From: Actinomycetes bacterium
GTDB taxonomy: Bacteria; Actinomycetota; Actinomycetes; Prado026
DNA length: 64,000 nucleotides
Assembly: GCA_036510875.1 (NCBI GenBank)
Contig: DATCDE010000007.1
Span: forward strand, 3,055-67,054
Direction: 5' to 3'
Below, piece by piece: positions 1-41,339 of the stretch. Below the pieces are notes generated by a model, which was not told the DNA's origin, searched no databases, and saw nothing but the letters and a program-made list of their open reading frames with translations. How positions within the stretch are numbered: the first letter of the stretch is position 1; each line of letters opens with the position of its first letter. A program made the position numbers and the translations under genes.

Positions 1-294
1 GCCAGAGTCGAGCGCGCCGAACAGCTGCTCGTCGCCGGCGTACATGGTCAGCACGACGATGCCGAGGTCCGGGCGCTGCCGCCGTGCGGCCTTGACGATG
101 TCGAGGCCGCTGCCGTCGGGGAGCCGGACGTCGACGACGACGACATCCGGGTGCAGCACCGCCAGCTGCCGTGCCGCCTCGGCGACGGATCCGGCCTCGC
201 CGATGACCTCGAAGTCCTCGTTGCGCTCGAACGCGCGACGTAGCCCCTGCCGGATCAGCTCGTGGTCGTCAACGAGCAGCACGGTCGTGGACAT
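1..294 (-). CDS. Response regulator, NarL/LuxR family, receiver domain. Partial: the C-terminus lies beyond the window start.
   Basis: Reverse-strand translation MSTTVLLVDDHELIRQGLRRAFERNEDFEVIGEAGSVAEAARQLAVLHPDVVVVDVRLPDGSGLDIV... is a classic receiver. Its start overlaps the upstream kinase stop by 26 nt. Confidence 0.8.
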   Translation of the reverse strand, partial: MSTTVLLVDDHELIRQGLRRAFERNEDFEVIGEAGSVAEAARQLAVLHPDVVVVDVRLPDGSGLDIVKAARRQRPDLGIVVLTMYAGDEQLFGALDSG

Positions 295-1951
295 GGTCAC
301 CCCCTGCGTGGCCTAAACCGTTGGGAGAGTCCGGTGCGAGCTCACCCACGACGACCTCAACGACGGTACCTCCGCCGTCGCGTGGTCTTACCGTGAGGTC
401 GGCTCCGAGTCGTCTCGCACGCTCCCTCATGATCTCCATACCGTAACTGTCGGTACGCGAGGGCCCCAACCCGAGTCCGTCGTCCTCGATTCGCAGAAAG
501 GCGTTAGGCGGGTTCGTCTGGCAGGTCACCCACAGGTTGGCCGATCTGGCGTGCTTGCGGACGTTGGTGATGGACTCCTGGGCAATGCGAAGCAGCTCCG
601 CCTCAGTCTCGGCGCGCAGCCGGTGGGGGGACTCGTCCAGGATCAGGTGGACGGTGAGGTCCGAGGTGGCGCCGATGGTCCGCACGTAGTCCGACAGAGC
701 CGCCCCCAGGCCGGTGGAGGTGTGCACCTCGCTGCGCAGGTCGAAGATGGACAGCCGCAGCTCGGAGATGATCCGGGTCAGATCGGAACGCAGACTCTGC
801 AGCGCCTGGCGCTGCTCCTCGGTAGCCGCCCGGTATGCCATGTCGTCCATGACGTACCCCAGCGAAGCCAGCTCCTGCGCTATGCCGTCGTGGATCTCTC
901 GGGCCAACCGGCGGCGCTCCTCGGCGGTCGCGATCTGGCGCACCTCGGAGAACAGCAGAGCCGTCTCGATCCGCAGGGAGGCATCCGCGAGCAGGGTCTC
1001 GGCGGCAGCAAGCTCCTCGGACGTGAACGGTTCGTCGAGCCGCTCCACGCCGAGGATGCCGATCACGCGGACCCCAACGCGCAGTGGCAGGGCGGCGGCA
1101 TAGCCGTCCTCACCGCCGGAGAACAGCCCCTGGCCACGGCTGGGACTTCCGCTGGTCCAGGCCTCAGCCCAGAGGGAGTCGGCATCGATGGATGGATGCC
1201 AGTCGACCGGCATCGCGCTGCCGAAAGCGAGCGGCACGAGCAGTCCCCCCTCCGACCGGGCGAACAACGCAGCTCGGGAGTAGGCCACTGAGCGCTGCAG
1301 GTTCTCCAGGGTCGCCTGGGCGAGGGAATAGGCGTCCAAGCCGCCGGCGAGCTGCCGGGAAACCGTGCGCAGCTGGGACAGCAACCGGTACGCGGCCTGG
1401 TAGGAGGCCTGACTCGGGTCGCTCTGGGACTCCACCCGCAGTCGGCGTGCCCACGCCGCGAGCAGCCCCGCAATGAGCGAGAGCACCAGCCACTGGCCGG
1501 CGTAGGCCGAGAACGAGCGGGGGTCCGCCTCGACCACAACGGCGGTCAGCGCGAGGACGCCGAGCGCCAAGCCCACCGACACGGATGCGACGGAGGCGCC
1601 CCACAGAAGTCCGGCGGCGACGGCTGGCGCGATCAGATACGGCATCAAGGTCGCGCCGCTCGGCTCGTTGAGCCCGATGAGGAGGGCCGCCGCACCGATC
1701 TCGATCGCCGGCCCGATCCGAGCGATCGAACGCGCCGTTGCGAGGGTGGCCCCAGCAACGATGGCCAGCAGCAACCCGAGCGGCGGCCAGGCGACGTCGA
1801 AGCCAACGAGCAGCACCAGGACGACGGCCAGCATCGTGAAGAGGCCGAGGCGCAGCCCGATCACAAAGCCACGCGGACTCCTCAGCAGGGTGCGCAGTCG
1901 CATGGGCCGACGGTTGCACACGGGCTCATAGATTGCTACGGCCGGGGCCAT
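269..1951 (-). CDS. Sensor histidine kinase: multi-TM N-terminus, GAF domain, HisKA_3 (NarX/DesK type) and HATPase_c.
   Basis: Hydrophobic N-terminus, central GAF-like segment, H-box REIHDGIAQELASL, and a C-terminal ATPase with NVRKHA...DDGLGLG motifs. The true start may be an internal Met. Confidence 0.8.
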   Translation of the reverse strand: MAPAVAIYEPVCNRRPMRLRTLLRSPRGFVIGLRLGLFTMLAVVLVLLVGFDVAWPPLGLLLAIVAGATLATARSIARIGPAIEIGAAALLIGLNEPSGATLMPYLIAPAVAAGLLWGASVASVSVGLALGVLALTAVVVEADPRSFSAYAGQWLVLSLIAGLLAAWARRLRVESQSDPSQASYQAAYRLLSQLRTVSRQLAGGLDAYSLAQATLENLQRSVAYSRAALFARSEGGLLVPLAFGSAMPVDWHPSIDADSLWAEAWTSGSPSRGQGLFSGGEDGYAAALPLRVGVRVIGILGVERLDEPFTSEELAAAETLLADASLRIETALLFSEVRQIATAEERRRLAREIHDGIAQELASLGYVMDDMAYRAATEEQRQALQSLRSDLTRIISELRLSIFDLRSEVHTSTGLGAALSDYVRTIGATSDLTVHLILDESPHRLRAETEAELLRIAQESITNVRKHARSANLWVTCQTNPPNAFLRIEDDGLGLGPSRTDSYGMEIMRERARRLGADLTVRPRDGGGTVVEVVVGELAPDSPNGLGHAGGDHVHDRAAR

Positions 1952-1991
1952 TCCGCCGCGCTGGGGGGCGCAGGTCTGGGATCATGAGCAG

Positions 1992-2990
1992 GTGGAGGGT
2001 TTGAGTACTCTGAGCAGCGTCCTGCATGAAGCCAACTGCAAGTTGGAACAGGGGCGCTCCGCAGCTGCCAGCGTGTGGCCGACCGGCTTCACCCCGTTGG
2101 ACGCCTACCTCAACGGTGGTCTGCGCTCGGGCGAGCTGACGCTGCTGGGCGGGCCTCAGGGTCTGGGCAAGACCACCTTGGCACTGCAGCTCCTGCGTAA
2201 CGTCGTAGCGTCCGGTCACACCGCCGTCTACTTCTCCTTCGAGCACGACGCGGTCCTGGTCCTGGAGCGGCTGCTGGCAGTCGAAGCCGGACTCGCCGGA
2301 GGGATCGAGGCTCCGACGATCCGCCAGTTCCGGGAGGCGCTGGAGGCGGCGGACGGCCAGTTGGGCGGGCTTGAGGACCGGCTGGCTGCCACCGAGGGGG
2401 GCGCCGAGGCAGTTCTCGCAGTCCGGGCGTGGGGAGACCGCCTCATGATCCATCGCTCCAACGGCACAACCACGAGCGTGCAGACCATCGCCGCGGTCGT
2501 CCAGGAGGTCCGCGCCACCCACGGCCAGCCGCCGCTCGTCGTCGTCGACTACCTGCAGAAGGTCGCGGTGCCGCTCGGTGGCCCCAGCGAGGAGGAGCGG
2601 ATCACCGATGTGGTCCAGGGGCTGAAGGACCTGGCTCTGGCCGCCGACGTGCCGGTTCTGGCCGTCGTGGCAGCGGACAAGGAGGGTATCCGGGCGGGTC
2701 GTCGACTGCGCACCCACCACCTACGCGGCGCATCGGCCTTGGCCTACGAGGCCGACGTCGTACTCGTGATGAACGACAAGTTCAACGTGGTGGCCCGACA
2801 CCACCTGGTCTACGACATCACGAATGCCGAGAGCTTCCGCAACTTCGTGGTGGTGAGCCTCGAGAAGAACCGAAATGGGCTGGACCACATCGACCTGCAG
2901 TTTCGCAAGAGGTTCGAGCGCGGTCGCTTTGACCCGGAGGGGTCCGCAGTCTCCGAGCAGCTCGTCGACGAGCGGGTCTTTGTCGAGTAG
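1992..2990 (+). CDS. Stand-alone DnaB-helicase C-terminal-like RecA-fold ATPase. It lacks the DnaB N-terminal domain.
   Basis: PTGFTPLDAYLNGGLRSGELTLLGGPQGLGKTTLALQL matches the DnaB Walker A region. EADVVLVMND...LEKNRNG resembles the DnaB C-terminal motifs. It has a GTG start and sits divergent from the kinase gene (40 bp gap). Confidence 0.6.
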   Translation: MEGLSTLSSVLHEANCKLEQGRSAAASVWPTGFTPLDAYLNGGLRSGELTLLGGPQGLGKTTLALQLLRNVVASGHTAVYFSFEHDAVLVLERLLAVEAGLAGGIEAPTIRQFREALEAADGQLGGLEDRLAATEGGAEAVLAVRAWGDRLMIHRSNGTTTSVQTIAAVVQEVRATHGQPPLVVVDYLQKVAVPLGGPSEEERITDVVQGLKDLALAADVPVLAVVAADKEGIRAGRRLRTHHLRGASALAYEADVVLVMNDKFNVVARHHLVYDITNAESFRNFVVVSLEKNRNGLDHIDLQFRKRFERGRFDPEGSAVSEQLVDERVFVE

Positions 2991-2996
2991 CCGGCC

Positions 2997-3884
2997 CTAA
3001 CGGTCCTCGGCCTTGCGCGCTGTGTAGCGGATCAGCGCCCGCGCCAGCCGGCGGACTTCGAGTGCCTCGAGGAGAAAGGCCGCCGCGTCGCGGCCCAGGC
3101 TGGCTGACTGCTCGATGTTGTCCTCCGAGAACGGCGGATTGTTGCGGCGAGCGAGGATCAGTATGCCGCCGATGTGGGGGACAGGAATGGCCAAGAGATG
3201 CCGCCAACTCGCCAACGGTGCGCCGGCCAGCATCTGCCGGGCGATGTCGGTGTCCGTTACGAGCACACCGCGGGCACCGACGCCAACGGTCTGGACCAGC
3301 CAGTGATCGATCGAGAGCTCGGATCGGGCCTCCAAGGGTCGCAAGCCTGATCCCGCGGCAACCCACCAGTGGTTCTCCTCGCGCAGCATCAGGGCACCCG
3401 CGTCAGCCTTGTTCTCCACAAGTGCCTGCTGGAGGACGACCCTGCTGACCTCCGCGACGGTGGGGAGTCGGCCCGCGCTCGGCAGAAGTGCCCGCACCAG
3501 GTCGAGGGGCGTCATGGCCGAAAGCCCGGTGGGTTTGGGCTCCCGCCGGGCGACTTGGCCAGCCCCCTCAGGGGCGGTTGGTGAGACCTGAGTCGCGTCG
3601 AGCAACCGCTCCAGCGACTGGACGAGCGACGGCTGGCTGACCGGCCGGACGACGATCGAGGTCTGCGGCGGCCGCTGGACAGGAGTGACGTCCCAGTCCG
3701 GGCTGACCAGGACCAGCGCTGGGATCGGTGCGAAGCGGTGGCGCAAGGTCGTCAACAACCGGACCGTCTCGTCGGCGGACTGAAGGTCGAGCAGGATCGC
3801 GTCGACCGATGGGGGCTCCGCTGACTCGATGACCTCGTGCTCGGACAGCACGACCGTGGTGAAGCGCGTGCCGGCCAGCCCCAT
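2997..3884 (-). CDS. Receiver-like (REC) plus GAF domain protein encoded immediately downstream of tadC.
   Basis: N-terminus TTVVLSEHEVIE...ILLDLQSADETVRLL...PALVLVS looks receiver-like. The C-terminal about 150 aa look GAF-like. ATG at 3884. The upstream part of the long ORF 2997..4481 is low-complexity R/G/P and is treated as non-coding. Confidence 0.5.
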   Translation of the reverse strand: MGLAGTRFTTVVLSEHEVIESAEPPSVDAILLDLQSADETVRLLTTLRHRFAPIPALVLVSPDWDVTPVQRPPQTSIVVRPVSQPSLVQSLERLLDATQVSPTAPEGAGQVARREPKPTGLSAMTPLDLVRALLPSAGRLPTVAEVSRVVLQQALVENKADAGALMLREENHWWVAAGSGLRPLEARSELSIDHWLVQTVGVGARGVLVTDTDIARQMLAGAPLASWRHLLAIPVPHIGGILILARRNNPPFSEDNIEQSASLGRDAAAFLLEALEVRRLARALIRYTARKAEDR

Positions 3885-3925
3885 GGCGAGCGCCGGGGTC
3901 CGGGACACCACGAGGAGTCGAGGCA

Positions 3926-4864
3926 CTACAGCTTGCCGGTCAGCGAATTGATCACCGAGATGATGGCCGGCCCGACAACGACGATCATCATGACCGGAAG
4001 GATGCAGAAGATCAACGGGAAGAGCATCTTCACGGGGACCTTCTGGGCGGCTTCCTCCGCCCGCTGCGACCTCTTGATCCGCAGCTCGTGCGACTGGATC
4101 CGCAGCACGTTGGCGATGGGGATGCCGAACGAGTCGGCCTGAACCATCGCACTGGCGAAGCTCTTCATCTCCGGCAGGTTCGCCCGGTCGCCGAGGTCGC
4201 GAATCGCCTCCGACCGGCTGCGTCCGAGTTGCATCTCCTGCAACACCCTGAAGAACTCCGAGGCCAGGGGTCCCGCGGTGTTCCTGGACACCTCCGAAAG
4301 CGCACCGTCGAAGGACTGCCCCGCCTCCACCGAGATGGTCAGCATGTCGAGGGCGTCCGGGAGATCCCGGCGAAGCTGCTCGGTGCGCTTCACCGCTCGC
4401 TCGTTCAGGACAAGGTCGGGAGTGAAGTAACCGAGGACAGAAAGCCCGACCACTGCCGCCAGGAACCACACCACCCCCCATCCGAGCACGAGCGGCAGTG
4501 CTAGCCCGATCGCGAATCCGATGATCAGTCCCAGTGCCTTGAAGGCCAGGATCCGGTCGACGTTCCAGTGAGCAGGGTTTCCTGCCAGGTCCAGCCGCCG
4601 TCTGATGCGGGCAGCCTGCTCCGCGGGAGTGATGCGCCGGCCCATCTCGGTGAGCTGGGCGAAACCCGGCTTCGTCACTCGGTCTGCAAACGGTCGGTCC
4701 ATCGCACCACGTAGCTCCGGTGGCGTCGCCCGCATCGTGCTGACCGCCTCGAGCGACCGGCCCACACCTGTCGGTTCTCGGCGCAGGACCCCGAAGAAGC
4801 CGAGAAAGAGCAGCGTCCCCACGAAGAAGGCCCCGAGGCCGGCGAGCAGCAGCATCCCGCTCAC
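3926..4864 (-). CDS. tadC: Tad pilus assembly inner-membrane protein TadC (T2SS-F domain).
   Basis: TM-rich about 312 aa protein with T2SSF-like loops (GQSFDGALSEVSRNTAGPLASEF, LRIQSHELRIKRSQRAEEAAQK). Its start overlaps the tadB stop. Confidence 0.8.
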   Translation of the reverse strand: MSGMLLLAGLGAFFVGTLLFLGFFGVLRREPTGVGRSLEAVSTMRATPPELRGAMDRPFADRVTKPGFAQLTEMGRRITPAEQAARIRRRLDLAGNPAHWNVDRILAFKALGLIIGFAIGLALPLVLGWGVVWFLAAVVGLSVLGYFTPDLVLNERAVKRTEQLRRDLPDALDMLTISVEAGQSFDGALSEVSRNTAGPLASEFFRVLQEMQLGRSRSEAIRDLGDRANLPEMKSFASAMVQADSFGIPIANVLRIQSHELRIKRSQRAEEAAQKVPVKMLFPLIFCILPVMMIVVVGPAIISVINSLTGKL

Positions 4865-4865
4865 G

Positions 4866-6860
4866 TCAGTACTCCACCCTCACCACTCGACGGAGCCACA
4901 CGACGCCGACGATGAACAACACCAAACCGACGGTCAGCATGACCAACCCGAGCGGCGTCGTGAACAGCAGTGACAGGTATCCCGGCCGCACCAGCGCGAG
5001 AAAGACCGCAAAGATGAACGGCAGCAAGCCGATGATCCACGCCGACAGCCGACCCTCCGCGGACAGGACACGAACCTGGCGACGGAGCCGTTCCCGTTCC
5101 CGCAGAGTGCTGGCCACGTTGCGCAGCACCTCCGCCAGGTTACCGCCGACCTCCCGCTGGATCCGGATCGCCATCACCGTCCAACGGAAGTCCGTGCTGT
5201 CCATTCGCTCGCCGATCCCTGCGAGCGCGTCCTCGATCGGGACGCCGAGCCGAGCTTCCACGAGCGCATGGTTGAACTCCCCGGCGATGGGGTCGGCGCC
5301 TTCTCGGACGACAGAGTCGACGGCTTGGGGGAGGGAGTAGCCCGCCTGCAGACCGCCAGCCATGAGCTGCAGGGTGTCCGCCAGCTGGTCGTTGAAGGCG
5401 CTCAGCCGCCGGTTCCACCGCACGCTCAGATACGTCCAGGGGAGCAGCGCCCCCAGCCCCACCGCGATGAGCGCGGCAAGCAGTCGACCGGTGAGCAGTC
5501 CGACGAGCAAGCCGCTGCCGAGCGTAATGCCCGCATGGATGATCACCCACTCCGCGGGTTGGAGCGGGACAGCCGCTCGGTCCAACCGCTGGGCAAGTTC
5601 TACCTCCACGTCTCGGTTCTTGGTGACGCGGCCGGCGAACTCCACCGCGGATCGGGCGACCGCGCTGTCCCCGAGCGCCGGTGTGGACTCCGACTCCTTG
5701 ACTGGCAGCTTTCCGCGCAGAGTGTAGATCGCGATCCGTCGGTCGACGGCGCTGAGCTGGTCGCCGCCGAGGTCACGCATCGCCACTCCGAGCAGGATGG
5801 CAAGAGAGAGGAACAGCACGCCCAGCGCGGACCAGAGTGCGGGGCGCGTCAGATGGGCGTACCAGGGGGCGGTGACAGCGATGGGGCCCGCGGCAGCCGG
5901 GGTGGATGGCGAGCTGCTGGGGGAACCCTGGGTGCCCAGCAGCGGGACGAACACTGTGTCCGACAGCTGGGTGGTTCCGGCGTAGGCCTCGATGGTCAGC
6001 TGCTGGCTGTTCAGCAGGACAGTCGGCACGTCGACCAGAACCTGGAGCTGGTTGCTGATCGCGTTCGCACTCTGCACGAAGATCGTGCTGAGGTTGCTCG
6101 CCTGGGCGGTGGCCACCACCTGGCCCTTGCCAGCCGCCGTCAGAGTCTTGAGGGTCGCCAGCTGGCCCTGGCCCGCGCCCAGGGAGACGGCATCGACGAC
6201 GACCTGTGACCTGCCGATCGCGTTGGTGGCATCGGCCAGCGTCGCTTGGCTGGAACCGTCGTCCGCGCCGTCGCTGAGCACTAGAACCTGCCGGATCCCG
6301 GTACTGCCAGCGCTGGCTACAGCCAGCCGGACTCCGTCATAGAGCGCGGTACCACCGTTGGGTGGCGCCGACAGCCGGTCGATCGCAGCCCGGACGGCGA
6401 TCCGGTCGAGCGTGGGTGACAGGGCAAGCTGGGGGCGGCCGGCGAAGGTGACCAGCCCGACGCGTACCGATGCTGGCACCGAGGCGAGGAACTGCGAAGC
6501 TGCGGCCTTGGCGGCTGCTATCGGAGCTCCGTTCATGCTGCCCGAGGTGTCCATCGCGAGAATGGCGATCCGATGGACCGCGGTGTCCCCCTGGCCGACG
6601 ACCGTCGCGGTCGCGGGAAGGGCCGCGCCACCCACGCTGGCAGTGACGCTGGACGTGCTGATCGTCGTTCCTGTCGGGAGCCCGGCGGCTTCGAAGAATG
6701 CGGTGACCTGGGCTCCGTCGCTCGTCGGCTGAACCTTGGCCGAGACGATGCGACCGACCGGTCCGTTCGTTGCGGCCAAGGCCACCCCGGTGGGCATCAA
6801 CCCAACGGCCACCAGCAGCCCCAGCACAGTGAAGAGGCGACGGAACGGGAAAGCAGTCAC
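4866..6860 (-). CDS. tadB: Fusion protein: signal peptide, von Willebrand factor A (VWA) domain, Ser/Pro-rich linker, then TadB (T2SS-F domain).
   Basis: N-terminal MTAFPFRRLFTVLGLLVAVGLMPTGVALA is followed by a VWA MIDAS motif (ILAMDTSGSM...LVTFAGRP...LSDGADD). The C-terminal about 300 aa are a typical TadB T2SSF domain. Confidence 0.75.
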   Translation of the reverse strand: MTAFPFRRLFTVLGLLVAVGLMPTGVALAATNGPVGRIVSAKVQPTSDGAQVTAFFEAAGLPTGTTISTSSVTASVGGAALPATATVVGQGDTAVHRIAILAMDTSGSMNGAPIAAAKAAASQFLASVPASVRVGLVTFAGRPQLALSPTLDRIAVRAAIDRLSAPPNGGTALYDGVRLAVASAGSTGIRQVLVLSDGADDGSSQATLADATNAIGRSQVVVDAVSLGAGQGQLATLKTLTAAGKGQVVATAQASNLSTIFVQSANAISNQLQVLVDVPTVLLNSQQLTIEAYAGTTQLSDTVFVPLLGTQGSPSSSPSTPAAAGPIAVTAPWYAHLTRPALWSALGVLFLSLAILLGVAMRDLGGDQLSAVDRRIAIYTLRGKLPVKESESTPALGDSAVARSAVEFAGRVTKNRDVEVELAQRLDRAAVPLQPAEWVIIHAGITLGSGLLVGLLTGRLLAALIAVGLGALLPWTYLSVRWNRRLSAFNDQLADTLQLMAGGLQAGYSLPQAVDSVVREGADPIAGEFNHALVEARLGVPIEDALAGIGERMDSTDFRWTVMAIRIQREVGGNLAEVLRNVASTLRERERLRRQVRVLSAEGRLSAWIIGLLPFIFAVFLALVRPGYLSLLFTTPLGLVMLTVGLVLFIVGVVWLRRVVRVEY

Positions 6861-8254
6861 TACGATCGCCCGTACCTCTCGAACGCGAAGATCCGCGGGT
6901 CGACATCAACGCCTGCGTCCGACAGCTTCTCCAGGAACCGCGGGCGCAGCCCGGTGGACTTCAGCTGGCCCAGCGAGCGGCCGTGCTCGTCGAAGCCCAT
7001 GTGGTGGTCGAAGACGAACAGGTCCTGAAGAGTGATGATGTCGCCCTCCATCCCGACAACCTCAGACACGTGCGTGATGTGGCGCGTGCCGTCCTTGAAG
7101 CGGGCCTGGTGGACGATCAGGTCGATGGCGCTGGACACCTGTTCGCGGATCGCGCGCAGCGGCAGGTCGTAGCCGGCAAAGAGCACCATCGTCTCGATGC
7201 GAGCGAGGGTGTCCCGGGGGCTGTTCGCGTGCACGGTGCAGATCGACCCGTCGTGTCCGGTGTTCATCGCCTGCAGCATGTCCAGCGCGGCGGCGTCGCG
7301 CACCTCGCCGATGACGATGCGGTCAGGGCGCATGCGGAGGGCATTGCGCACGAGGTCCCGGACGGCGATCTCGCCCTTGCCCTCGATGTTCGGTGGGCGG
7401 GCCTCCAGCCTGATCACGTGCTCCTGGTGCATCTGGAGCTCCGCGGCGTCCTCGATGGTGATGATCCGCTCGTCGTTCGGGATGAAGGCGGACAGCACGT
7501 TCAGGGTGGTGGTCTTGCCGGCGCCAGTTCCGCCTGACACAAGGATGTTCAGCCGGCCGAGTACGCACGCCTCAAGGAACTCCGACACCGCGCGGCTCAG
7601 GGTGCCGAACCCGACCAGGTCGTCGACTTCGTAGGGGTCTGCGGCGAACTTGCGGATCGTCAGGGCGCTGCCATCCACCGCGAGTGGCGGGATGATCGCG
7701 TTGACCCGGCTGCCATCCTGCAGGCGGGCGTCGACCATGGGGCTCGACTCGTCGACCCGGCGACCAACGCGTCCGACGATCTTGTCGATGGTGCGACGCA
7801 AGTGGGCGTCGTCCGCGAACTGGGCGTCCACGGGGTAGATCCGCCCGCCCCGCTCGACATAGATGCGGTCGTAGCCGTTGACCATGACCTCGGTCACGTC
7901 CGCGTCCCGAAGGTACGGCTCGAGCGGCCCGTATCCGAGGATGTCGTCAGCGATCTCCTGTGAGATGCGAGCGCGGTCCGCCACTGTCAGCGGCGTCTCC
8001 TCCTTGGCCAGCACCTCCTGCAGGGTCGCTCGGACGCGCTGCTCGAGCTCGGGCTGGGTCAGTCGGGAGTCGTAGAGGTGCGGCCCGAGGGTCTCGAGGA
8101 GCGAGCGGTGGACCTCGCGCTTGAGGCCCGCGAACGGGTCGGCTCCGCGGGGGACGCGCGCTCCGGGCCCCTGCCGGCTGAGCGAGTCATTGTCGGGGGT
8201 GATCTCGGTGCCACGGGCCCGCCGAGCTTCGGCGAGGCGGTCGGAGAGGCTCAT
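6860..8254 (-). CDS. tadA: Tad/Flp pilus secretion ATPase TadA/CpaF.
   Basis: Walker A GGTGAGKTT, ...IEDAAEL..., GEVRD, TGHDGSICTVHANS: the canonical CpaF/VirB11-like signature. Confidence 0.9.
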   Translation of the reverse strand: MSLSDRLAEARRARGTEITPDNDSLSRQGPGARVPRGADPFAGLKREVHRSLLETLGPHLYDSRLTQPELEQRVRATLQEVLAKEETPLTVADRARISQEIADDILGYGPLEPYLRDADVTEVMVNGYDRIYVERGGRIYPVDAQFADDAHLRRTIDKIVGRVGRRVDESSPMVDARLQDGSRVNAIIPPLAVDGSALTIRKFAADPYEVDDLVGFGTLSRAVSEFLEACVLGRLNILVSGGTGAGKTTTLNVLSAFIPNDERIITIEDAAELQMHQEHVIRLEARPPNIEGKGEIAVRDLVRNALRMRPDRIVIGEVRDAAALDMLQAMNTGHDGSICTVHANSPRDTLARIETMVLFAGYDLPLRAIREQVSSAIDLIVHQARFKDGTRHITHVSEVVGMEGDIITLQDLFVFDHHMGFDEHGRSLGQLKSTGLRPRFLEKLSDAGVDVDPRIFAFERYGRS

Positions 8255-9453
8255 CTCGAGGACTTCCTTCCGAATCGGTGGCGCCGGTCATGGCGCAATG
8301 GAGAGGGAACGGAGTCGTCAACCGACGGCCCCACGACGACGTACCGCTCGGCGAACTGGCGGATCGCCTGGCTCACCGGGTGATTCGGCTGGTCCAGGGC
8401 GATCGGCACGCCGCGGTTGATGGTGGACGGGACCTCGCGAGAGGAGGGGATCTGCGCGACGATCTTGGCGTTGAGGGTCTTCTCGACGTCGGCCGCGGTC
8501 AGCCCCACCTTGGAGTCCGCCCTGTTGAGTACGACCACCCACCGGTCGCGGGAGTAGTTGAGGAGCTCGAGGGTCTCGAGGGTGAGCTTGAGGTTCTTGA
8601 TCGCAGGGATGTCCAAGGTGGCGATGTTCGCGATGATGTCGCTGCGGTCGAAGGCGGCCAGCACCTGGTCGTCGAACGCGGGCGGGGTGTCGACGACGAC
8701 GTAGTCGAACTGGTCGCGCAGTATCTCGAGCATCCGGCCGATCAGCTCGGCCGGGATGTGGCCTGCCGTGCCTGGCTCGACGGGCGCCACGAGAGCCGAC
8801 AGCCCAGGGGAGTGCCGGGTGATCAGGGATTTCAGGCCATCGGCGTCCAGGCTGTCACCCAGCGCAACCGCATCGGCGAGTGTGTGCGCGGGGAACAACT
8901 GGAGGACGATCGCCACATCCCCGAAGGCCAGGTCGAGGTCGAGAATGCAGACCTCCCGCCGGCCGTGGTCAGCGAGGATCGCGGCGAGGTTGGTGGCCAG
9001 GGTGGTCTTTCCGCACCCGCCCTTCGCCGAGAAGACGGTAACGATATGACCACGGTGCCCCGGGCTGGCATGCTCGCCCCCGCGAGTGTCTGCACTGCGC
9101 AGCCGTCGGGACAGGACCCGCGAGCGCCGGGCTGCCTCGGCTAGACCGGACAGGTCACGCTCCTCGACGACGTCCCGGACGCCGGCTCGGAGAGCCTCGG
9201 CCAGCACTGAGGCGTCTACCCGGCGGCGGACCAGGATGACCCCGATGCTTGGGTGCAGCACGCGCACCTCCGACGCGACACTCAGCGCAGTCGGCAGGTC
9301 GACGGTCGGACCGAACACCACCGTGTCCTCGGTCAGCCCTGGGACCAGGTGGTGTCGCAGGGCGTCGACGGACGGCAGGACCTCGGTGTCCGAGCCCAGC
9401 GCCGTCCGCAGGATGTCAGCGATCGAAGGGTCCAGGTCGACCACGATGGCCAT
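8251..9453 (-). CDS. tadZ: TadZ/CpaE: N-terminal receiver-like domain plus ParA/MinD-type ATPase.
   Basis: VFSAKGGCGKTTLATNLA deviant Walker A and DTPPAFDD motifs. Confidence 0.85.
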   Translation of the reverse strand: MAIVVDLDPSIADILRTALGSDTEVLPSVDALRHHLVPGLTEDTVVFGPTVDLPTALSVASEVRVLHPSIGVILVRRRVDASVLAEALRAGVRDVVEERDLSGLAEAARRSRVLSRRLRSADTRGGEHASPGHRGHIVTVFSAKGGCGKTTLATNLAAILADHGRREVCILDLDLAFGDVAIVLQLFPAHTLADAVALGDSLDADGLKSLITRHSPGLSALVAPVEPGTAGHIPAELIGRMLEILRDQFDYVVVDTPPAFDDQVLAAFDRSDIIANIATLDIPAIKNLKLTLETLELLNYSRDRWVVVLNRADSKVGLTAADVEKTLNAKIVAQIPSSREVPSTINRGVPIALDQPNHPVSQAIRQFAERYVVVGPSVDDSVPSPLRHDRRHRFGRKSSR

Positions 9454-9498
9454 GCGGGCGTCTCCTCGGTACTGGCGTCAGTTCGATGGTTCGCCGGA

Positions 9499-10236
9499 TC
9501 AGCCAAACACGTTTGTTGAGGTGACGGCTCCACCGGGGCTGACCTTGGAGTCCGGGGTGAGCAGGGCGAAGTACAGCTGACCCTGTTGGGTGGCGTAGAT
9601 GATCTTGGTGGCCTCCTGCTGGGTGAGGGCCAGGGTGAGGATCGTCCGCGGGATCTGCTCTGAGTTCTGCTGCCCGCTGGAGTCGGTCGTGGTCTTGGTC
9701 ACCGTGGTCGTGTTGCCGACCCCGACGACGGTCACCCGGGGGAGCAGGATCTGGGTGACGCTGGTTTGGGCCGCGGCGGTTCCGGACGAGATGGTTGCGA
9801 AAACCGAGACCTCGGACCCGTTGCTCACGAACCCGGCTACCCGCTCCGGGTCGCCCAGCTGGACGCTCACCGCGATCTTCCCGGCTGGGATCGGCAGCGT
9901 GCTCTGCGAGCCGGCAGGACCGAACTGCTGCTGGAGGATCTGCTCGCCAGGGAAGATCGGAGACAGGGCCACCAGGGCTGCCACCGCGGTGATGTCACTC
10001 AGGGCTCCTTTTGCGACCGAGTTCTGGGCCACCTCGCGCGGTTCAAGTGCCCCGCTTTCGGCAGCCGAGGAGCCCGTCGTACCGGCGGAGATCTGGGACT
10101 TGGCGAAGAGTACCTTGACCAGCTGTTGCCCGGCTGCTGCGCGCTGGTCGGCTCCTCGGGCGTAGAGGAACACCAGGCCGGTTCCCAGTGCCGCGACAAG
10201 TAGCGCGGCCACGAGCAGGATCGTTCTGCGTCCCAT
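9499..10236 (-). CDS. cpaB: Flp pilus assembly protein CpaB/RcpC (SAF domain).
   Basis: N-terminal TM (MGRRTILLVAALLVAALGTGLVFLYA) and a Thr/Ser/Gly-rich beta-type domain typical of CpaB. RBS GAGAGG lies upstream. Confidence 0.75.
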   Translation of the reverse strand: MGRRTILLVAALLVAALGTGLVFLYARGADQRAAAGQQLVKVLFAKSQISAGTTGSSAAESGALEPREVAQNSVAKGALSDITAVAALVALSPIFPGEQILQQQFGPAGSQSTLPIPAGKIAVSVQLGDPERVAGFVSNGSEVSVFATISSGTAAAQTSVTQILLPRVTVVGVGNTTTVTKTTTDSSGQQNSEQIPRTILTLALTQQEATKIIYATQQGQLYFALLTPDSKVSPGGAVTSTNVFG

Positions 10237-10536
10237 GGGTTTCCTCTCAGCGGTCCTCGGGAACGTGGAAACCCCGGCTCAGGATGGGCGCAGCGTACGC
10301 GTTCACGCAGCGTCCCTGCTCGACTACACCCCGTGCCACGCGCCCCCCTGCCGACAGCGGACCACCGTCACCTATCTTGCGTTTTGTGTGTCCCGCCTGT
10401 CTGCCTCTTTTGGATGAGCAACACTACCGAGCGTGAGCAGTTCAGACCGTGGGACAGCGGGTTCGACCTGAAGGGATGACGCGGATTCGGGCCGAACGGC
10501 CGACGGCGCGCCCGGTGTGCGGCTTTCTGGCTGGGC

Positions 10537-12327
10537 TCAGCGGTAGATGGCGTCGATCTCGGCGGCGAATCGCTCCATCACGACCCCCCGCCTGAGTTTC
10601 ATCGTCGGGGTGAGCTGGCCGCTCGACTCGGTGAAGTCCTCGGTGAGAAGGCTGAACTTCTTGATCGCCTCGGCGTGGGAGACCGCTTTGTTGGCGTCGT
10701 CCACGGCGGCCTGGACGGCGGCCAGCACCTCCGGGTCCTCGACGACGGCGGCCGGCGGCAGGTCGGCCGGTTTGCCGTGGGCGGTCAGCCAGCCGGGCAG
10801 GGACTCGGCGTCGAGGGTCACCAGGGCCGCGATGAACGGTTGGCGGTCACCCACGACCATGCAGTGGCTGATCAGCTGATGCGCGCGCAGCCGGTCCTCG
10901 AGCACCGCCGGGGCCACGTTCTTGCCCCCGGCGGTGACGATGAGCTCCTTCTTTCGCCCGGTGATGAACAGGTAGCCGTCGTCGTCCAGCCGGCCGATGT
11001 CGCCGGTGTGGAACCAGCCGTCCGGTTCCAGGGCCTCCTTGGTCGCCGTCTCGTTGCGCCAGTAGCCGACGAACACGTGGTCGCCCTTGAGCAGGACCTC
11101 GCCGTCCTCGGCGATCCGGACCGACCCGCCGGGGATCGGCTGGCCCACCGACCCGACCCGGATCGCGTCCGGCCGGTTGATGGTGGCGCCCGCGGAGGTC
11201 TCGGTGAGGCCGTAGCCCTCCAAGATGGTGATCCCGGCGCCGCGGAAGAAGTGGCCCAGGCGCGCACCCAGCGGTGCGCCGCCCGACACGGCGTACTCGA
11301 TCCGCCCGCCCATGCGCTCCCGCAGCTTGCTGTAGACGAGCCGGTCGAACAGCGCGTGCTGCAGCCGGACCCCCAGGCCCGGGCCGCCGGCGTCCAGCCC
11401 CTCGCTGTAGGCGACGGCTGTGGCGGCGGCGCGCTCGAAGATCTTGCCCTTGCCCTCGGCGGTGGCCTTGGCCTGGGCGCCGTTGAAGACCTTTTCGAAC
11501 ACGCGGGGCACGGAAAGGATGAAAGTCGGCCGGAAGCCGGCCAGGTCGTCCAGCAGCGCGGCCGGGTCCGCGGTGTGCCCGAGCACGACCCCGGCGTGGA
11601 CGCACCCGATCTGGATGAGCCGGCCGAACACGTGCGCCAGCGGGATGAACAGCAGCGTCGACTTGCCGGGCCCGAAGACCTCGCCGAGCCCGGCCACCAC
11701 GTTGGTCACGTCGGCCAGCATGTTGTGGTGGGTCAGCTCGCAGCCCTTGGGGCGCCCCGTGGTCCCGGAGGTGTAGATCAAAGTGCCCAGGCTGTCTGCT
11801 GTCAGCGTGCGTCGACGCTCCTCGACGTCGGCGTCGGGCACCTCGGCCCCCGCCTCCACGAGCGCGTCGATCGCGCCCGAGTCGATCCGCCACACGTTGC
11901 CGACGTTGGGGACGGCGGCCAGCACCTCGGTGACCGTCCGCTCGTGCTCCTCGTGCTCGACGAAGCAGGCGACCGCGCCCGAGTCGGTCAGGATCCACTC
12001 CACCTGCTCGGCCGAGGAGGTCTCGTAGATCGGCACCGGAACCGCGCCGGCGGCCCACAGCGCGAAGTCGGCGAGGGTCCACTCGTAACGGGTGCGGGAC
12101 ATGATGCCCACCCGGTCGCCGGGGCCGACCCCGGAGGCCATCAGCCCCTTCGCCAAGTCGGTCACCTCGGCCAGGAACTGCCGGGAGGTGACGTCCTGCC
12201 ACCGATCACCGACCTTGCGTCGGAACTGCACCCGGTGGGGGGTCCGGACGGCGTTGTCGTAGACCAGATCGGAGAGGTTGCGCTCGGTGGGCACCTCTGC
12301 GGCGGCGGGGACGCTGAACTCGTGCAC
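10537..12327 (-). CDS. fadD: Long-chain-fatty-acid-CoA ligase (AMP-binding, FadD15-like).
   Basis: IYTSGTTGRPKG, EGYGLTET, TGDIGRLDDDGYLFITGRKKE motifs. Proposed GTG start is at VHEFSVP (12327); the longer ORF runs to 12525. Confidence 0.85.
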   Translation of the reverse strand: MHEFSVPAAAEVPTERNLSDLVYDNAVRTPHRVQFRRKVGDRWQDVTSRQFLAEVTDLAKGLMASGVGPGDRVGIMSRTRYEWTLADFALWAAGAVPVPIYETSSAEQVEWILTDSGAVACFVEHEEHERTVTEVLAAVPNVGNVWRIDSGAIDALVEAGAEVPDADVEERRRTLTADSLGTLIYTSGTTGRPKGCELTHHNMLADVTNVVAGLGEVFGPGKSTLLFIPLAHVFGRLIQIGCVHAGVVLGHTADPAALLDDLAGFRPTFILSVPRVFEKVFNGAQAKATAEGKGKIFERAAATAVAYSEGLDAGGPGLGVRLQHALFDRLVYSKLRERMGGRIEYAVSGGAPLGARLGHFFRGAGITILEGYGLTETSAGATINRPDAIRVGSVGQPIPGGSVRIAEDGEVLLKGDHVFVGYWRNETATKEALEPDGWFHTGDIGRLDDDGYLFITGRKKELIVTAGGKNVAPAVLEDRLRAHQLISHCMVVGDRQPFIAALVTLDAESLPGWLTAHGKPADLPPAAVVEDPEVLAAVQAAVDDANKAVSHAEAIKKFSLLTEDFTESSGQLTPTMKLRRGVVMERFAAEIDAIYR

Positions 12328-16330: not shown

Positions 16331-17404
16331 TCACTTGTAGAGCGAGACTCCGGTCACACCCATGTCGCAGCTGGAGCCGAAAGCGCATGACCCGCCAGCT
16401 CCTGGGTAGCTGCTCGTCGAGTAGTTGACATACTGGAATTCCAAGAAGTCGACCTTGTTGTCGATGTATTTGGCCGCCTTGCTGGCATCCCAGCAGGATC
16501 CCCTGCCGATCTTGTTGTTCAGGGAGTATCCGCAGATCTTCGCGCCCACGAACGCCACGGTGTCGAACGATGGGTTGTTGACGCCGCGCGTGTGGTTGTA
16601 CCGGGTGACGACGGGCAGTAGCACGACTTGATCGAGCAGCGAGGTCAGCGGTCCGTCTATCTCGCCGGGGCGCGGCATTCGTCCAGCGGGGAGTTGCCGG
16701 TCGATTGTGATCGCTCCGGGGTAGCCATTTCGGGTCCAGTCCGCGAGGTCGTTGGCGCCATACGCGCCCCCGTTGAAGTCGACCGTCCCCCAGTTCCCGG
16801 GCTCGGTCGTTCCGCAGATCCCGATCTTGTTGTTCAGGTCGGCTACGAAAGTCTGGTTCGGGCGCGCCATGGCGTTCTGCGCCGTGGCTAGACAGATGGC
16901 GAAGGGACGCAGGCCGGTCACCGTGGTGGCCGGCCCGATCCGCGCGGTTGCCTGCTGCTTCGGCGTCAACGGCTGGGGGTTTCCACCGAACAGCTTCAGT
17001 GCCGACAGGAAGAACGACTGGACCTCCTTGGAGTTGCTGACCTGAACCTCGATAGCAGTTCCGTTGTCCACGCAGCGGGGTTGGCCGACGACGATGCTCG
17101 AGCCTGGCGCTGTCCCCTGTTCCGAAGCCTGAGCCGCGCTGATGGCCGCAGAGATGGCCGTAGACGTCAGCACCTCCTCGCAGTTCCCGGGGTTGATCGG
17201 CGCGACTTCACCGATCCGTCCAGCAGCCGCCAGCGCGGCACCGTCGGCCGCGACCGAGAGGTTGCGTTTGGTGGCCCAGGCGGCGCTGACGTCGACCGCG
17301 GCTGCTGCCATCAGCATCAGCAACGGCAACAGGATCGCTACCAGGGCCGCCACCGCACCCTCGTCGCGCCGAGATGGCACCCGTCGACTCAGCTGAACTC
17401 GCAT
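16331..17404 (-). CDS. tadG: TadG-like (TadE/G pseudopilin family) Flp pilus assembly protein.
   Basis: ATG at 17404 gives MRVQLSRRVPSRRDEGAVAALVAILLPLLMLMAAAAVDVSAAW (TadE-like N-terminus). The ORF upstream of it is arginine-rich junk. Confidence 0.65.
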   Translation of the reverse strand: MRVQLSRRVPSRRDEGAVAALVAILLPLLMLMAAAAVDVSAAWATKRNLSVAADGAALAAAGRIGEVAPINPGNCEEVLTSTAISAAISAAQASEQGTAPGSSIVVGQPRCVDNGTAIEVQVSNSKEVQSFFLSALKLFGGNPQPLTPKQQATARIGPATTVTGLRPFAICLATAQNAMARPNQTFVADLNNKIGICGTTEPGNWGTVDFNGGAYGANDLADWTRNGYPGAITIDRQLPAGRMPRPGEIDGPLTSLLDQVVLLPVVTRYNHTRGVNNPSFDTVAFVGAKICGYSLNNKIGRGSCWDASKAAKYIDNKVDFLEFQYVNYSTSSYPGAGGSCAFGSSCDMGVTGVSLYK

Positions 17405-17892
17405 CGATACACCGCCTTGGAGGACAGCGTGATCGTGGGTCCGAGACCCAGCGGCAGAATGAACTCTGCCGGGTAGGTGGCCTTGACGATCAGGCTCGCA
17501 TTCTCGCCGTTGGACGAGTCGAGACTGTTGGTGCACGGCACCGAGGTACTCCTCGGGTTGGCGCCGGTGCCGCACGCGTTGCTGCCGTCGGACCGGGTCA
17601 CCGTGACGTTGATCAGGTTCTGCCGGTTGACCACTCCGAGGGTTCCGGCTGCAGCGGCGCGGACGTTGGCCACCACGGTGTTGCACTGCCGGTCGATGCC
17701 CCCGCCGGCGACCACCGCGGCTCGGGCACCCTCGCGTACCGCGTTGTTCACCGTCAGCTGGGCGCTGAATACCCAGCCGAAACTGATGATCCCGAAGAGC
17801 AGGAGCAGGAGGATTGGCAAAATCAGCACGAACTCCACAGCAGCCGCGCCGTCCGCGCCGAGAGCCCGCAGGCTGGCCGACCCTCGTCCCAT
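17389..17892 (-). CDS. tadE: TadE-like pseudopilin.
   Basis: AAAVEFVLILPILLLLLFGIISFGWVFSAQ is the TadE N-terminal motif. RBS AGGTGGGGGG is present. The stop overlaps the tadG start. Confidence 0.75.
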   Translation of the reverse strand: MGRGSASLRALGADGAAAVEFVLILPILLLLLFGIISFGWVFSAQLTVNNAVREGARAAVVAGGGIDRQCNTVVANVRAAAAGTLGVVNRQNLINVTVTRSDGSNACGTGANPRSTSVPCTNSLDSSNGENASLIVKATYPAEFILPLGLGPTITLSSKAVYRCEFS

Positions 17893-18212
17893 AGCCCCCC
17901 ACCTGCCTAGTCCGGACCCGCACCGTGGTGCGCACCCCCGACGACGGTGATCAGGCTACGCCGTCTGATGAGGGCCCGGATCGGACGTTCGTCTGCTCGG
18001 GCACCACCCGGATGACTCAACTGCACGGCGTGACTGGCCGGTCACCCAGGGCGAGGTGAGTGGGCTCAGCTGCGGTGGAACAGGCGCTGTCGCAGGGTGC
18101 CGCGGCTGCGGCGGTGCGGGAGCTCGAGGGACGATTCCAGAAGTCCGGCGGCGAGAAGGCTGGCCGGCCTGTACTGGCGCGACACAGAAACCACATTCCT
18201 TACGTGATCGAC

Positions 18213-18233
18213 GGTGCGGGGCGACTCCCCGCA
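18213..18233 (-). terminator. GC-rich hairpin GTGCGGGG-cgact-CCCCGCAC downstream of the 18318..19550 gene.
   Basis: Perfect 8-bp stem seen in sequence, about 85 nt after the stop codon. No clear U-tract follows, which is common in Actinobacteria. Confidence 0.35.
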
Positions 18234-18317
18234 CTCCGATTGTCCCAGCCGGTCGTAACGCTGCGTGACCGACCGCGTGATCCCGATCGGCCGGTGAGGT
18301 CGCTCACATCCAGGGTG

Positions 18318-36770: not shown

Positions 36771-37253
36771 GTGGCCAGCCAGCGGGCCGCGATCGCCATG
36801 ACGGCGGCCGAGGCCGACGACTTCCTGCGGTCCGGTCGGATCTGCGTGCTCGTCACGCTCGGCCCGGACGGGCTGCCCGACCCGGTGCCCATGTGGTATG
36901 TCGTGGACGACGAGGGCCGGGTCGTCATGCGAACCTTCGCCAAGTCGCAGAAGGTGGTGAACCTGCGCCGCGACCCGCGCTACTCGGCGCTGGTCGAGGC
37001 CGGTGAGCGGTACGTGGAGCTGCGCGGCGTGCAGCTGACCGGCACGGTCGAGCTGGTGGAGGACCGTGAGGTGGTCGCGGACACGCTGACCGGCCTGGCC
37101 CTGAAGTACGAGGGCCTGGAGCCGCAGCACGCCGCCGGGTTCCGGGCCGCCGCCCTGGAGCAGGTCGGCAAGCAGGTGGGGCTGCGGCTGGGGGTGGACC
37201 GGCTGGTGTCCTGGGACCACCGCAAGCTGCCAACCAGTGGGGCCGGGGCGTGA
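36771..37253 (+). CDS. Pyridoxamine 5'-phosphate oxidase-family (PPOX class, probably F420-dependent) protein.
   Basis: 160 aa split-barrel-like sequence: ICVLVTLGPDGLPDPVPMWYVVDDEGRVVMRTFAKSQKVVNLRRDPR. Confidence 0.55.
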   Translation: MASQRAAIAMTAAEADDFLRSGRICVLVTLGPDGLPDPVPMWYVVDDEGRVVMRTFAKSQKVVNLRRDPRYSALVEAGERYVELRGVQLTGTVELVEDREVVADTLTGLALKYEGLEPQHAAGFRAAALEQVGKQVGLRLGVDRLVSWDHRKLPTSGAGA

Positions 37254-37588
37254 CCCGGTGCACCTACCTGGGCGTCCTGCTGGCCGCCCTCCTGGGCGCC
37301 AGCTGGCTCGAGGTGGTGCTGCACACCGGGGTGTTCCGCCGCTGGCGGCGGCTGCTGTTGACGCTGGCACCCGTGGTGGCGGTGTTCGTGGTGTGGGACC
37401 TGTACGCGATCGGGCACGGGCAGTGGACCTTCGACCCGCGGCGGACGACAGGGGTGCTGCTGGGGCGGCTGCCGGTGGAGGAGCTGCTGTTCTTCGTGGT
37501 GATCCCGGTGTGCTCGGTGCTCACCCTCGAGGCGGTGCGGGTGGTGCGCGGCTGGCCGGTCGGCGACGAGCCGGACGACCAGCGGTGA
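37250..37588 (+). CDS. crtYc: Lycopene cyclase domain protein (heterodimeric lycopene beta-cyclase subunit CrtYc-like).
   Basis: About 112 aa, 3 TM, YLGVLLAALLGASWLE..., as in actinobacterial crtYc/crtYd pairs. Overlaps the next gene (GTGA). Confidence 0.6.
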   Translation: MTRCTYLGVLLAALLGASWLEVVLHTGVFRRWRRLLLTLAPVVAVFVVWDLYAIGHGQWTFDPRRTTGVLLGRLPVEELLFFVVIPVCSVLTLEAVRVVRGWPVGDEPDDQR

Positions 37589-41272: not shown

Positions 41273-41339
41273 GGCCACTCCAGGATAGGGCCGGAAGCCT
41301 CCGCGGATCGAGTGGCTTACGGCACGTCGTCCCGGACGG

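Follow-up and report, generated by a model that had tools for sequence, protein, structure and literature searches.

The stretch of DNA analysed here (64,000 nucleotides, hereafter the window) carries on its minus strand a Tad (tight adherence) assembly operon whose gene order, cpaB, tadZ, tadA, VWA-tadB, tadC and a receiver-like/GAF gene, had been read correctly in the first-pass annotation and is borne out by the Pfam and NCBIfam matches compiled in Table 1. All tad ORFs are intact, and strong family matches were obtained for every assembly gene. The TadA sequence is exactly that of NCBI HEY5183364.1, named 'CpaF family protein', and scores 338 bits with TIGR03819, slightly under the cutoff of 373; TadZ matches the NCBIfam model CpaE_hom_Actino at E 3e-16, under that model's cutoff. 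The platform proteins, TadB and TadC, are encoded by two neighbouring T2SSF genes. A tadE gene, the only TadE-type gene seen, and a tadG-like gene lie 6 kb from the assembly operon, as given earlier for this pair, and match PF07811 and PF13400, respectively. No secretin (RcpA) family match was found among the locus genes scanned; this absence is expected in a monoderm actinomycete, and a secretin is not needed for Tad membership (PMC6668835; PMC6916266).

Table 1. Features of the Tad locus, in window positions
Feature	Coordinates	Strand	Evidence and remarks
NarL/LuxR-type response regulator, first 98 codons	1..294	-	Truncated by window edge; canonical receiver in translation
Membrane histidine kinase	269..1951	-	Pfam GAF, HisKA_3, HATPase_c; 4 TM segments by hydropathy
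DnaB-C-terminal-like ATPase	1992..2990	+	Pfam DnaB_C, E 8e-24
Receiver-like/GAF gene, 304 aa	2997..3911	-	Start 14 nt past tadC stop
tadC, second platform paralogue	3926..4864	-	Pfam T2SSF, E 3.3e-20
VWA-tadB fusion	4866..6860	-	Pfam VWA_2, E 5e-15 (residues 100-198); T2SSF, E 1.3e-20 (residues 497-621)
tadA/cpaF secretion ATPase	6860..8254	-	Pfam T2SSE, E 5.6e-62
tadZ/cpaE	8251..9453	-	ParA/MinD-type ATPase with N-terminal extension of ~130 aa; Pfam ParA, CbiA, AAA_31
cpaB/rcpC	9499..10236	-	First gene of assembly operon; Pfam RcpC, E 4.2e-21; NCBIfam TIGR03177, 93 bits (cutoff 71)
Region 5' of cpaB, 300 bp	10237..10536		No pilin ORF
tadG-like gene, 357 aa	16331..17404	-	Pfam Tad PF13400, E 6.5e-8; start codon checked; overlaps tadE stop by 16 nt
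tadE minor pilin, 167 aa	17389..17892	-	Pfam TadE PF07811, E 2.6e-19; processing motif G/AAAVEF (motif scan)

Within the window no flp gene was detected by a scan for the motif G....[ED][YF], by two hydropathy scans that took in every stop-to-stop segment of at least 25 aa, or by a clade-specific Flp HMM built from relatives, which upholds the negative search reported previously. Run on 1,029 six-frame segments of the window, the HMM gave TadE as its best match (E 0.034), while its positive control reached E 1e-29 and 1e-31. In the region directly 5' of cpaB, all ORFs of at least 20 aa were read and none encodes a pilin, the HMM being likewise without a match; the 17893-18317 gap is also devoid of any flp-like ORF. 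Thus neither of the two gaps in which an flp of less than 60 aa might have been missed by eye (10.2-10.5 and 17.9-18.3 kb) contains one, and a divergent or very short flp elsewhere in the window was rejected, as the motif, hydropathy and HMM scans gave TadE alone.

The picture changed with a metagenomic (ENA) contig, L001, which is 99.975% identical to window positions 1-11951 and reaches 3,020 bp past the left edge. On the same strand as the Tad operon it carries two pilin genes, flp1 and flp2, lying 486-671 bp and 781-963 bp, respectively, beyond window position 1. Their products, Flp1 (MLQMIRKHLAAARTHDDG/ATATEY..., 61 aa) and Flp2 (MRAQPRSDHG/ATATEY..., 60 aa), score 34.6 and 34.9 with Flp_Fap, against a Pfam gathering cutoff of 32.2, and both genes are preceded by Shine-Dalgarno sequences. 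The window is cut inside the response-regulator gene, so that flp1, which begins 131 nt past the stop of that gene, and flp2 fall outside it. A single 78,547-bp NCBI contig encodes TadA, Flp1 and the GT-C-like protein (the last described below) with identical sequences, the link between this contig and the window being made by exact protein identity together with the 99.975% identical ENA contig. The order of the genes agrees with the consecutive accessions HEY5183355-364, whose locus tags run from VIM19_00280 onwards. Two of these, HEY5183356 and HEY5183357, bear the NCBI name 'Flp family type IVb pilin'; both pilin genes are already annotated in the parent contig's public record (MAG "Actinomycetes bacterium").

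The missing pilin is accordingly a window-edge artefact. The earlier headline of a Tad operon without detectable flp does not stand, for the locus continues past position 2997 to the left edge and two canonical flp genes follow just beyond it. Of the explanations offered at that time, a pilin gene located elsewhere proved right, though only trivially so, since both genes belong to this very locus and are found about 3.5 kb downstream of the flagged positions (2997-10236); a highly divergent pilin or one below the ORF cutoff did not, the two proteins being canonical and 60-61 aa long. A 'pilin-less Tad operon' is thus non-existent and the question matters little as it was posed, a negative search in a window being uninformative on genes past its edge. 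In actinobacteria, flp normally comes after tadC (PMC4322843), and the present locus is a reminder that it is there, and not ahead of cpaB, that the pilin genes of actinobacterial tad loci are placed. The first-pass search had covered the region 5' of cpaB, which corresponds to the proteobacterial layout.

A regular expression for the A24 active-site motif, Pfam scans covering all multi-TM ORFs and the gene lists of the related loci revealed no prepilin peptidase gene (Peptidase_A24/tadV), be it in the 64-kb window and its 3-kb extension or up to about 10 kb from any related locus; pilin processing would therefore depend on a gene located elsewhere. This is in line with actinobacterial tadV typically lying outside tad loci (PMC4322843; PMC6916266) and with its treatment in the MacSyFinder model as a 'loner' gene for which an off-locus position is allowed (PMC6668835). 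Six loci share a conserved G-rich motif, CTCGWGGGGGGYCC, 5' of flp1; the window shows no enrichment of it, and it does not occur near cpaB or tadE. Neither the window nor L001 gave an Rfam match at gathering thresholds for a known RNA or riboswitch 5' of cpaB or flp. A search for sigma-70-type promoters gave no promoter-like site, and shuffled sequence contained terminator-like sites at least as often, so that the transcription units proposed below are drawn from strand and spacing alone.

The last gene of the assembly operon encodes a 304-aa protein in which a Pro/Ala-rich linker joins a degenerate receiver-like domain to a GAF domain. A longer ORF of 494 aa was rejected as the gene at 2997, since it overlaps tadC out of frame. 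The earlier description of the last gene as a 'REC-GAF' gene holds for the C-terminal part, which qualifies as a GAF domain by fold or sequence, and holds in part for the N-terminal one, which has a CheY-like alpha/beta fold but no PF00072 Response_reg match at E <= 0.1. Of the phosphorylation residues, the Asp at the beta3 position (D42) never varies in the alignment; S-R-T takes the place of the acidic pair after beta1, and Arg or Leu that of the Lys after beta5. The domain is therefore a pseudo-receiver or an atypical receiver. BLASTP revealed no detectable relationship (E 0.48) that would make it a paralogue of the TadZ N-terminal domain.

Downstream, on the opposite strand, lies the gene for the DnaB-C-like ATPase, a stand-alone RecA-fold protein, which converges with the GAF gene (6-bp gap) and diverges from the kinase gene (40-bp gap). 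A PDB profile search returned DnaB at E 7e-18, then KaiC and RecA; the single-sequence and profile PDB searches put RecA and the DnaB C-terminal domain first and KaiC after. Its Walker B region, VVVDYLQK, presumably resembles that of DnaB. A bacterial counterpart of ArlH/FlaH, the KaiC-like partner of the archaellum ATPase, was rejected, as the PDB sequence and profile searches gave no ArlH/FlaH chain. The response regulator encoded beyond the kinase is complete on L001 (11658-12305; Response_reg E 6e-23, GerE E 1e-17) and its receiver sequence reads VDDHE ... VVVDVRLPD. The position of the kinase/regulator pair beside the pilin genes suggests that it may control flp transcription.

Two further proteins are of unusual composition. 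VWA-TadB begins with a signal-peptide-like N-terminus and a VWA domain whose MIDAS motif is DTSGS; a Ser/Pro linker and then a TM helix lead on to the TadB platform domain, and from this arrangement the VWA domain would be exported and tethered to TadB. Outside the window, a gene starting 10 nt past the flp2 stop encodes a GT-C-like membrane protein of 491 aa, whose predicted GT-C membrane fold matches protein glycosyltransferases and whose first extracytoplasmic loop carries an acidic motif; given where its gene lies, it might glycosylate the pilins.

The same architecture was encountered in at least 9 further contigs. The gene order is repeated in L005, L057, L058, L059/L060, L061, L062, L065 and L066, and is shared in L063 up to the end of that contig. 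Protein identity between loci is only 40-80%, yet the assembly genes, ATPase, kinase, regulator and flp remain collinear; the DnaB-C-like ATPase is 60-78% identical in related loci.

Taken together, TadA, two platform paralogues, TadZ, a TadE-type minor pilin and, on L001 and not in the window, Flp make it highly probable that the window contains the greater part of an ordinary, complete Tad (type IVc, Flp) pilus locus of the monoderm type from an uncultured Actinomycetes MAG, with flp just outside. In the sequence, an assembly unit of cpaB, tadZ, tadA, VWA-tadB, tadC and the receiver-like/GAF gene is followed by the opposite-strand ATPase gene and by a second unit, on the same strand as the first, with the genes for the GAF histidine kinase, the NarL-type regulator, flp1, flp2 and the GT-C-fold membrane protein. 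By analogy with established Tad biology, the Flp prepilins would be cut after the Gly in G/ATATEY by a TadV encoded elsewhere and polymerised by the TadA ATPase on the TadB/TadC platform, with TadZ as the organising ParA-like protein, CpaB as an envelope-spanning part, and TadE and the TadG-like protein as priming minor pilins. The locus resembles Micrococcus luteus tad-1/tad-2 and Bifidobacterium breve tad2003 (PMC4322843; PMC6916266) in that (i) these are monoderm systems without secretin, with TadA and two platform paralogues, (ii) a small Flp with G/XXXXEY is encoded downstream of tadC, together with a TadE-type minor pilin with G/XXXXEF, and (iii) the tad genes may be distributed over several sites; tadV, which lies outside the locus in those systems, was not found here in the region examined. 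The locus differs from them by five extra genes, namely the receiver-like/GAF, DnaB-C-like ATPase, kinase and regulator genes between tadC and flp and a second flp copy after the first, by the predicted exported VWA fused to TadB, and the GT-C-fold gene after flp. Moreover, a CpaB/RcpC gene is present here, whereas Pelicic lists CpaB/RcpC as missing from the monoderm models.

That the machine truly lacks Flp, being either a degenerate remnant or the assembly apparatus of a fibre of TadE/TadG-like proteins, would fit the absence of flp from the 64-kb window and the pilin-type N-terminus of TadE, but has next to no probability left: two canonical flp genes are present on L001 and on the NCBI contig, no tad ORF is disrupted, and at least 9 contigs conserve the gene set, flp included. 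It is also very improbable that flp1, flp2 and the two-component system form an independent unit, assembled by another Tad machine and adjacent by accident. An opposite-strand gene does separate the flp unit from the assembly operon, which implies separate transcripts; yet collinearity is kept across loci despite protein identities of only 40-80%, and the window yielded no additional tadA, tadB or tadC. The function of a complete system is another matter. As in M. luteus, where Flp pili from split tad loci are needed for natural transformation (PMC4322843), the system could serve mainly for secretion or, as a competence pseudopilus, for DNA uptake, and not primarily for adhesion, and the tad genes are split here too, with tadE and tadG set apart from the operon. 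We regard this as unlikely, as no comEC/comEA-type genes were noticed near the locus and the predicted exported VWA, with its intact MIDAS, would suggest ligand or surface binding.

Within the complete monoderm-type pilus locus that we favour, only the conserved accessory genes are new, and mildly so. Tentatively, the pseudo-receiver/GAF protein, the DnaB-C-like ATPase, the GAF kinase and NarL regulator, VWA-TadB and the GT-C enzyme could constitute a dedicated module with roles in sensing, in the control of assembly and in glycosylating the pilins, the alternative being that they are neighbours merely travelling together. A kinase and regulator are likewise encoded beside flp/tad in Pseudomonas aeruginosa (PprA-PprB, which controls type IVb pili; 10.1101/639112) and in Pectobacterium (ECA0785/0786), where the two-component system adjoining the tad locus regulates flp/tad genes (PMC3767616); the Pectobacterium regulator is of the OmpR type, in contrast to the NarL/LuxR-type regulator and GAF-HisKA_3 kinase found here, for which position points to a regulatory role. 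The polytopic GT-C protein may modify the pilin as does TfpW, the P. aeruginosa group IV pilin glycosyltransferase (bioRxiv 10.1101/2020.04.19.049825); the pilin here is of the Flp type, not type IVa. The remaining value of the locus is descriptive, namely a widely conserved actinomycete Tad architecture with several uncharacterised accessory genes, which could seed studies of the regulation and modification of monoderm Tad pili. A VWA domain is also built into the Tad system of Caulobacter, in CpaL, a minor pilin-like protein fused to VWA for which surface sensing or binding has been proposed (PMC12607857). Unlike in CpaL, the domain found here stands on the TadB N-terminus, behind a signal-peptide-like segment, and not on a pilin module, so that it would sit at the membrane base and not at the pilus tip. 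The VWA part has a gene of its own in L059/L060.

The first-pass annotation had described the Tad pilus operon at window positions 2997-10236 as lacking a detectable flp pilin gene, and within the window flp is indeed absent. Reading of all ORFs of at least 20-25 aa disclosed no pilin ORF downstream of tadC or in the gaps 10237-10536 and 17893-18317, the two places where a short flp might have been overlooked. A six-frame scan of the window for G....[ED][YF] plus a hydrophobic stretch returned TadE as its sole match, and a screen of the window's short ORFs for a hydrophobic segment near the C-terminus, run at two stringencies, yielded no flp. Likewise, an HMM built on ten Flp sequences taken from related loci found no flp among 1,029 stop-to-stop segments of the window (>=20 aa; top match TadE, E 0.034); the same HMM retrieves both true Flp genes (E 1e-29 and 1e-31) on L001, a metagenomic contig overlapping the window.

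The Tad locus extends leftwards past position 2997. Exact-sequence look-up with the histidine kinase encoded there identified four metagenomic contigs, including L001, which matches window 1-11951 at 99.975% identity and reaches 3,020 bp further left than window position 1. This extension carries the remainder of the response regulator (REC + GerE), followed by two flp genes, some 3.5 kb outside the interval 2997-10236, each preceded by a Shine-Dalgarno sequence and each with a product above the Pfam Flp_Fap gathering score. Exact-sequence look-ups with TadA, Flp1 and a 491-aa membrane protein all led to the same 78,547-bp NCBI contig ("MAG TPA: Actinomycetes bacterium"), on which accessions follow gene order: HEY5183355 (hypothetical protein, VIM19_00280), HEY5183356 and HEY5183357 (both "Flp family type IVb pilin"), HEY5183361 ("GAF domain-containing protein") and HEY5183364 ("CpaF family protein"). 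Both flp genes are thus already annotated in the parent record, and the "missing" pilin is an effect of the 64-kb cut: the observation was accurate inside the window, while its interpretation as an operon without flp is a window-edge artefact. Flp2 is 87 aa long in NCBI (HEY5183356.1) versus 60 aa from other gene callers; since a strong Shine-Dalgarno sequence (AAGGAGG) precedes the 60-aa start, which also gives a leader of usual length, NCBI's start is probably too far upstream.

Features of the Tad locus (window coordinates unless stated)
Feature	Position	Strand	Remarks
cpaB/rcpC	9499-10236	minus	Pfam and NCBIfam
tadZ	8251-9453	minus	Pfam and NCBIfam
tadA/cpaF	6860-8254	minus	Pfam and NCBIfam
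VWA-TadB fusion	4866-6860	minus	664 aa; Pfam and NCBIfam
tadC	3926-4864	minus	Pfam and NCBIfam
receiver-like/GAF gene	2997-3911	minus	304 aa; called on four independent contigs
DnaB-C-terminal-like ATPase	1992-2990	plus	convergent with GAF gene
GAF-HisKA_3 histidine kinase	269-1951	minus	membrane protein
response regulator, start	1-294	minus	98 residues of canonical receiver domain; runs off window
flp1	486-671 bp left of base 1		61 aa; MLQMIRKHLAAARTHDDG/ATATEYVLLLAG...; 131 nt after regulator
flp2	L001 12732-12914; 781-963 bp left of base 1		60 aa; MRAQPRSDHG/ATATEYALLLAG...; 109 nt after flp1
polytopic membrane protein	L001 12925-14400; ~973-2448 bp left of base 1		491 aa; 10 nt after flp2
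tadE	17389-17892		processing motif G/AAAVEF; 6 kb from operon
tadG-like gene	16331-17404		6 kb from operon

The gene order first reported, and the remote position of tadE/tadG, agree with these assignments. A 494-aa ORF from the mechanical ORF list was rejected as the last operon gene, as it overlaps tadC out of frame. G+C across the window is 66-76%, and a GC3 above 0.8 marks out real genes. GC3 is 0.81-0.90 in all tad-locus genes wholly in the window (1-10236, 16331-17892) versus 0.90-0.97 in the interspersed and flanking housekeeping genes, a difference that fits either a distinct history or a distinct expression level.

The same order (cpaB, tadZ, tadA, VWA(-)tadB, tadC, GAF gene, reversed DnaB_C-like ATPase, kinase, regulator, one or two flp and usually a membrane protein) recurs on other contigs, namely L005 (an Actinomycetota MAG), L057, L058, L059/L060 (VWA domain as a separate gene), L061, L062, L065 (a 2.9-Mb contig), L066 (GCA_038246545.1) and, as far as the contig reaches, L063, with protein identities to the window of about 40% to 95%. 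Synteny with L059 extends to the acyl-CoA synthetase upstream of cpaB. A standard monoderm Tad pilus machine is the best reading; gene content, Flp motifs and this conservation are established from sequence, and the roles of the individual parts are inferred. A role in DNA uptake, as in M. luteus, is a less likely alternative. The locus is of an ordinary kind, from an uncultured organism, and its conserved, uncharacterised accessory genes are mildly interesting.

Neither the window nor the 3,020-bp extension contains a Peptidase_A24 (tadV) gene, and none turned up in the roughly 10 kb flanking any of the related loci. In actinobacteria generally the prepilin peptidase likewise lies outside tad loci (PMC4322843, an M. 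luteus study), B. breve too has its peptidase gene at another site (PMC6916266), and tadV counts as a loner in the MacSyFinder Tad model (PMC6668835). Peptidase_MA_2 genes recur on the flp side in L057 (13579-16526), L065 (3944-5772) and L066 (286-4245), accompanied in the latter two by Peptidase_M48 and NLPC_P60 genes, and never with Peptidase_A24 nearby.

Two-component systems adjoining tad loci are known regulators in Pectobacterium (PMC3767616), and P. aeruginosa type IVb pili are under PprA-PprB control (10.1101/639112); here the adjacent kinase and regulator would control flp. A G-rich motif, CTCGWGGGGGGYCC, precedes the flp1 start codon by 30-50 nt (L001 12395-12412), is conserved in six loci (L001, L057, L058, L059, L061, L062), shows no enrichment in the window, and could be a regulator site or 5'-UTR element. 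Only 40 bp separate the divergent starts of kinase and ATPase (1951-1992) and 6 bp the convergent stops of ATPase and GAF gene (2990-2997), very tight packing that implies leaderless or overlapping transcripts.

The name "receiver-GAF" holds at fold level for the 304-aa protein; its receiver-like domain has an invariant Asp where the phospho-acceptor would lie and lacks the canonical acidic pair and conserved Lys, hence a pseudo-receiver or atypical receiver. A word-limited search gave 33 relatives; the family is probably larger, as in L066 the corresponding position is taken by longer GAF proteins. The ATPase most resembles the DnaB C-terminal domain, RecA and KaiC, and a relationship to ArlH/FlaH was rejected as not detectable; its family has at least 2,410 matches (E <= 1e-10), named "DnaB-like helicase C-terminal domain-containing protein" in Actinomycetes and Nocardioidaceae MAGs. 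VWA-TadB comprises a signal-peptide-like segment (RRLF...GVALA/AT), a VWA domain with intact MIDAS motif (DTSGS), a Ser/Pro linker, a TM helix and the TadB domain; from this order and crude hydropathy, the VWA domain is predicted to be exported and tethered to the platform.

The 491-aa protein matches no Pfam or NCBIfam family and has 14 relatives, 13 of them clear, in a word-limited search. Its predicted fold is GT-C, the best matches being the protein glycosyltransferases STT3B, DPY19, PglB and AglB; a D41xD43 motif is invariant, and a GT4 glycosyltransferase gene follows on the other strand of L001. It is a candidate pilin glycosyltransferase, by which the pilins would be glycosylated. Most Flp proteins of the clade (L058, L059, L061, L062), including Flp2 and excluding Flp1 of this organism, have a C-terminal tail with two conserved Cys (e.g. 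DTCN...AACK), which suggests a disulfide-bonded loop.

Elsewhere in the window, a 549-aa protein (39725-41374, minus) is predicted to have about 11 TM segments and matches no Pfam family. Two carotenoid-related genes (37250-37588 and 52787-53587), one for a protein with a lycopene cyclase domain and one for a Caroten_synth protein, indicate that the organism is probably pigmented.
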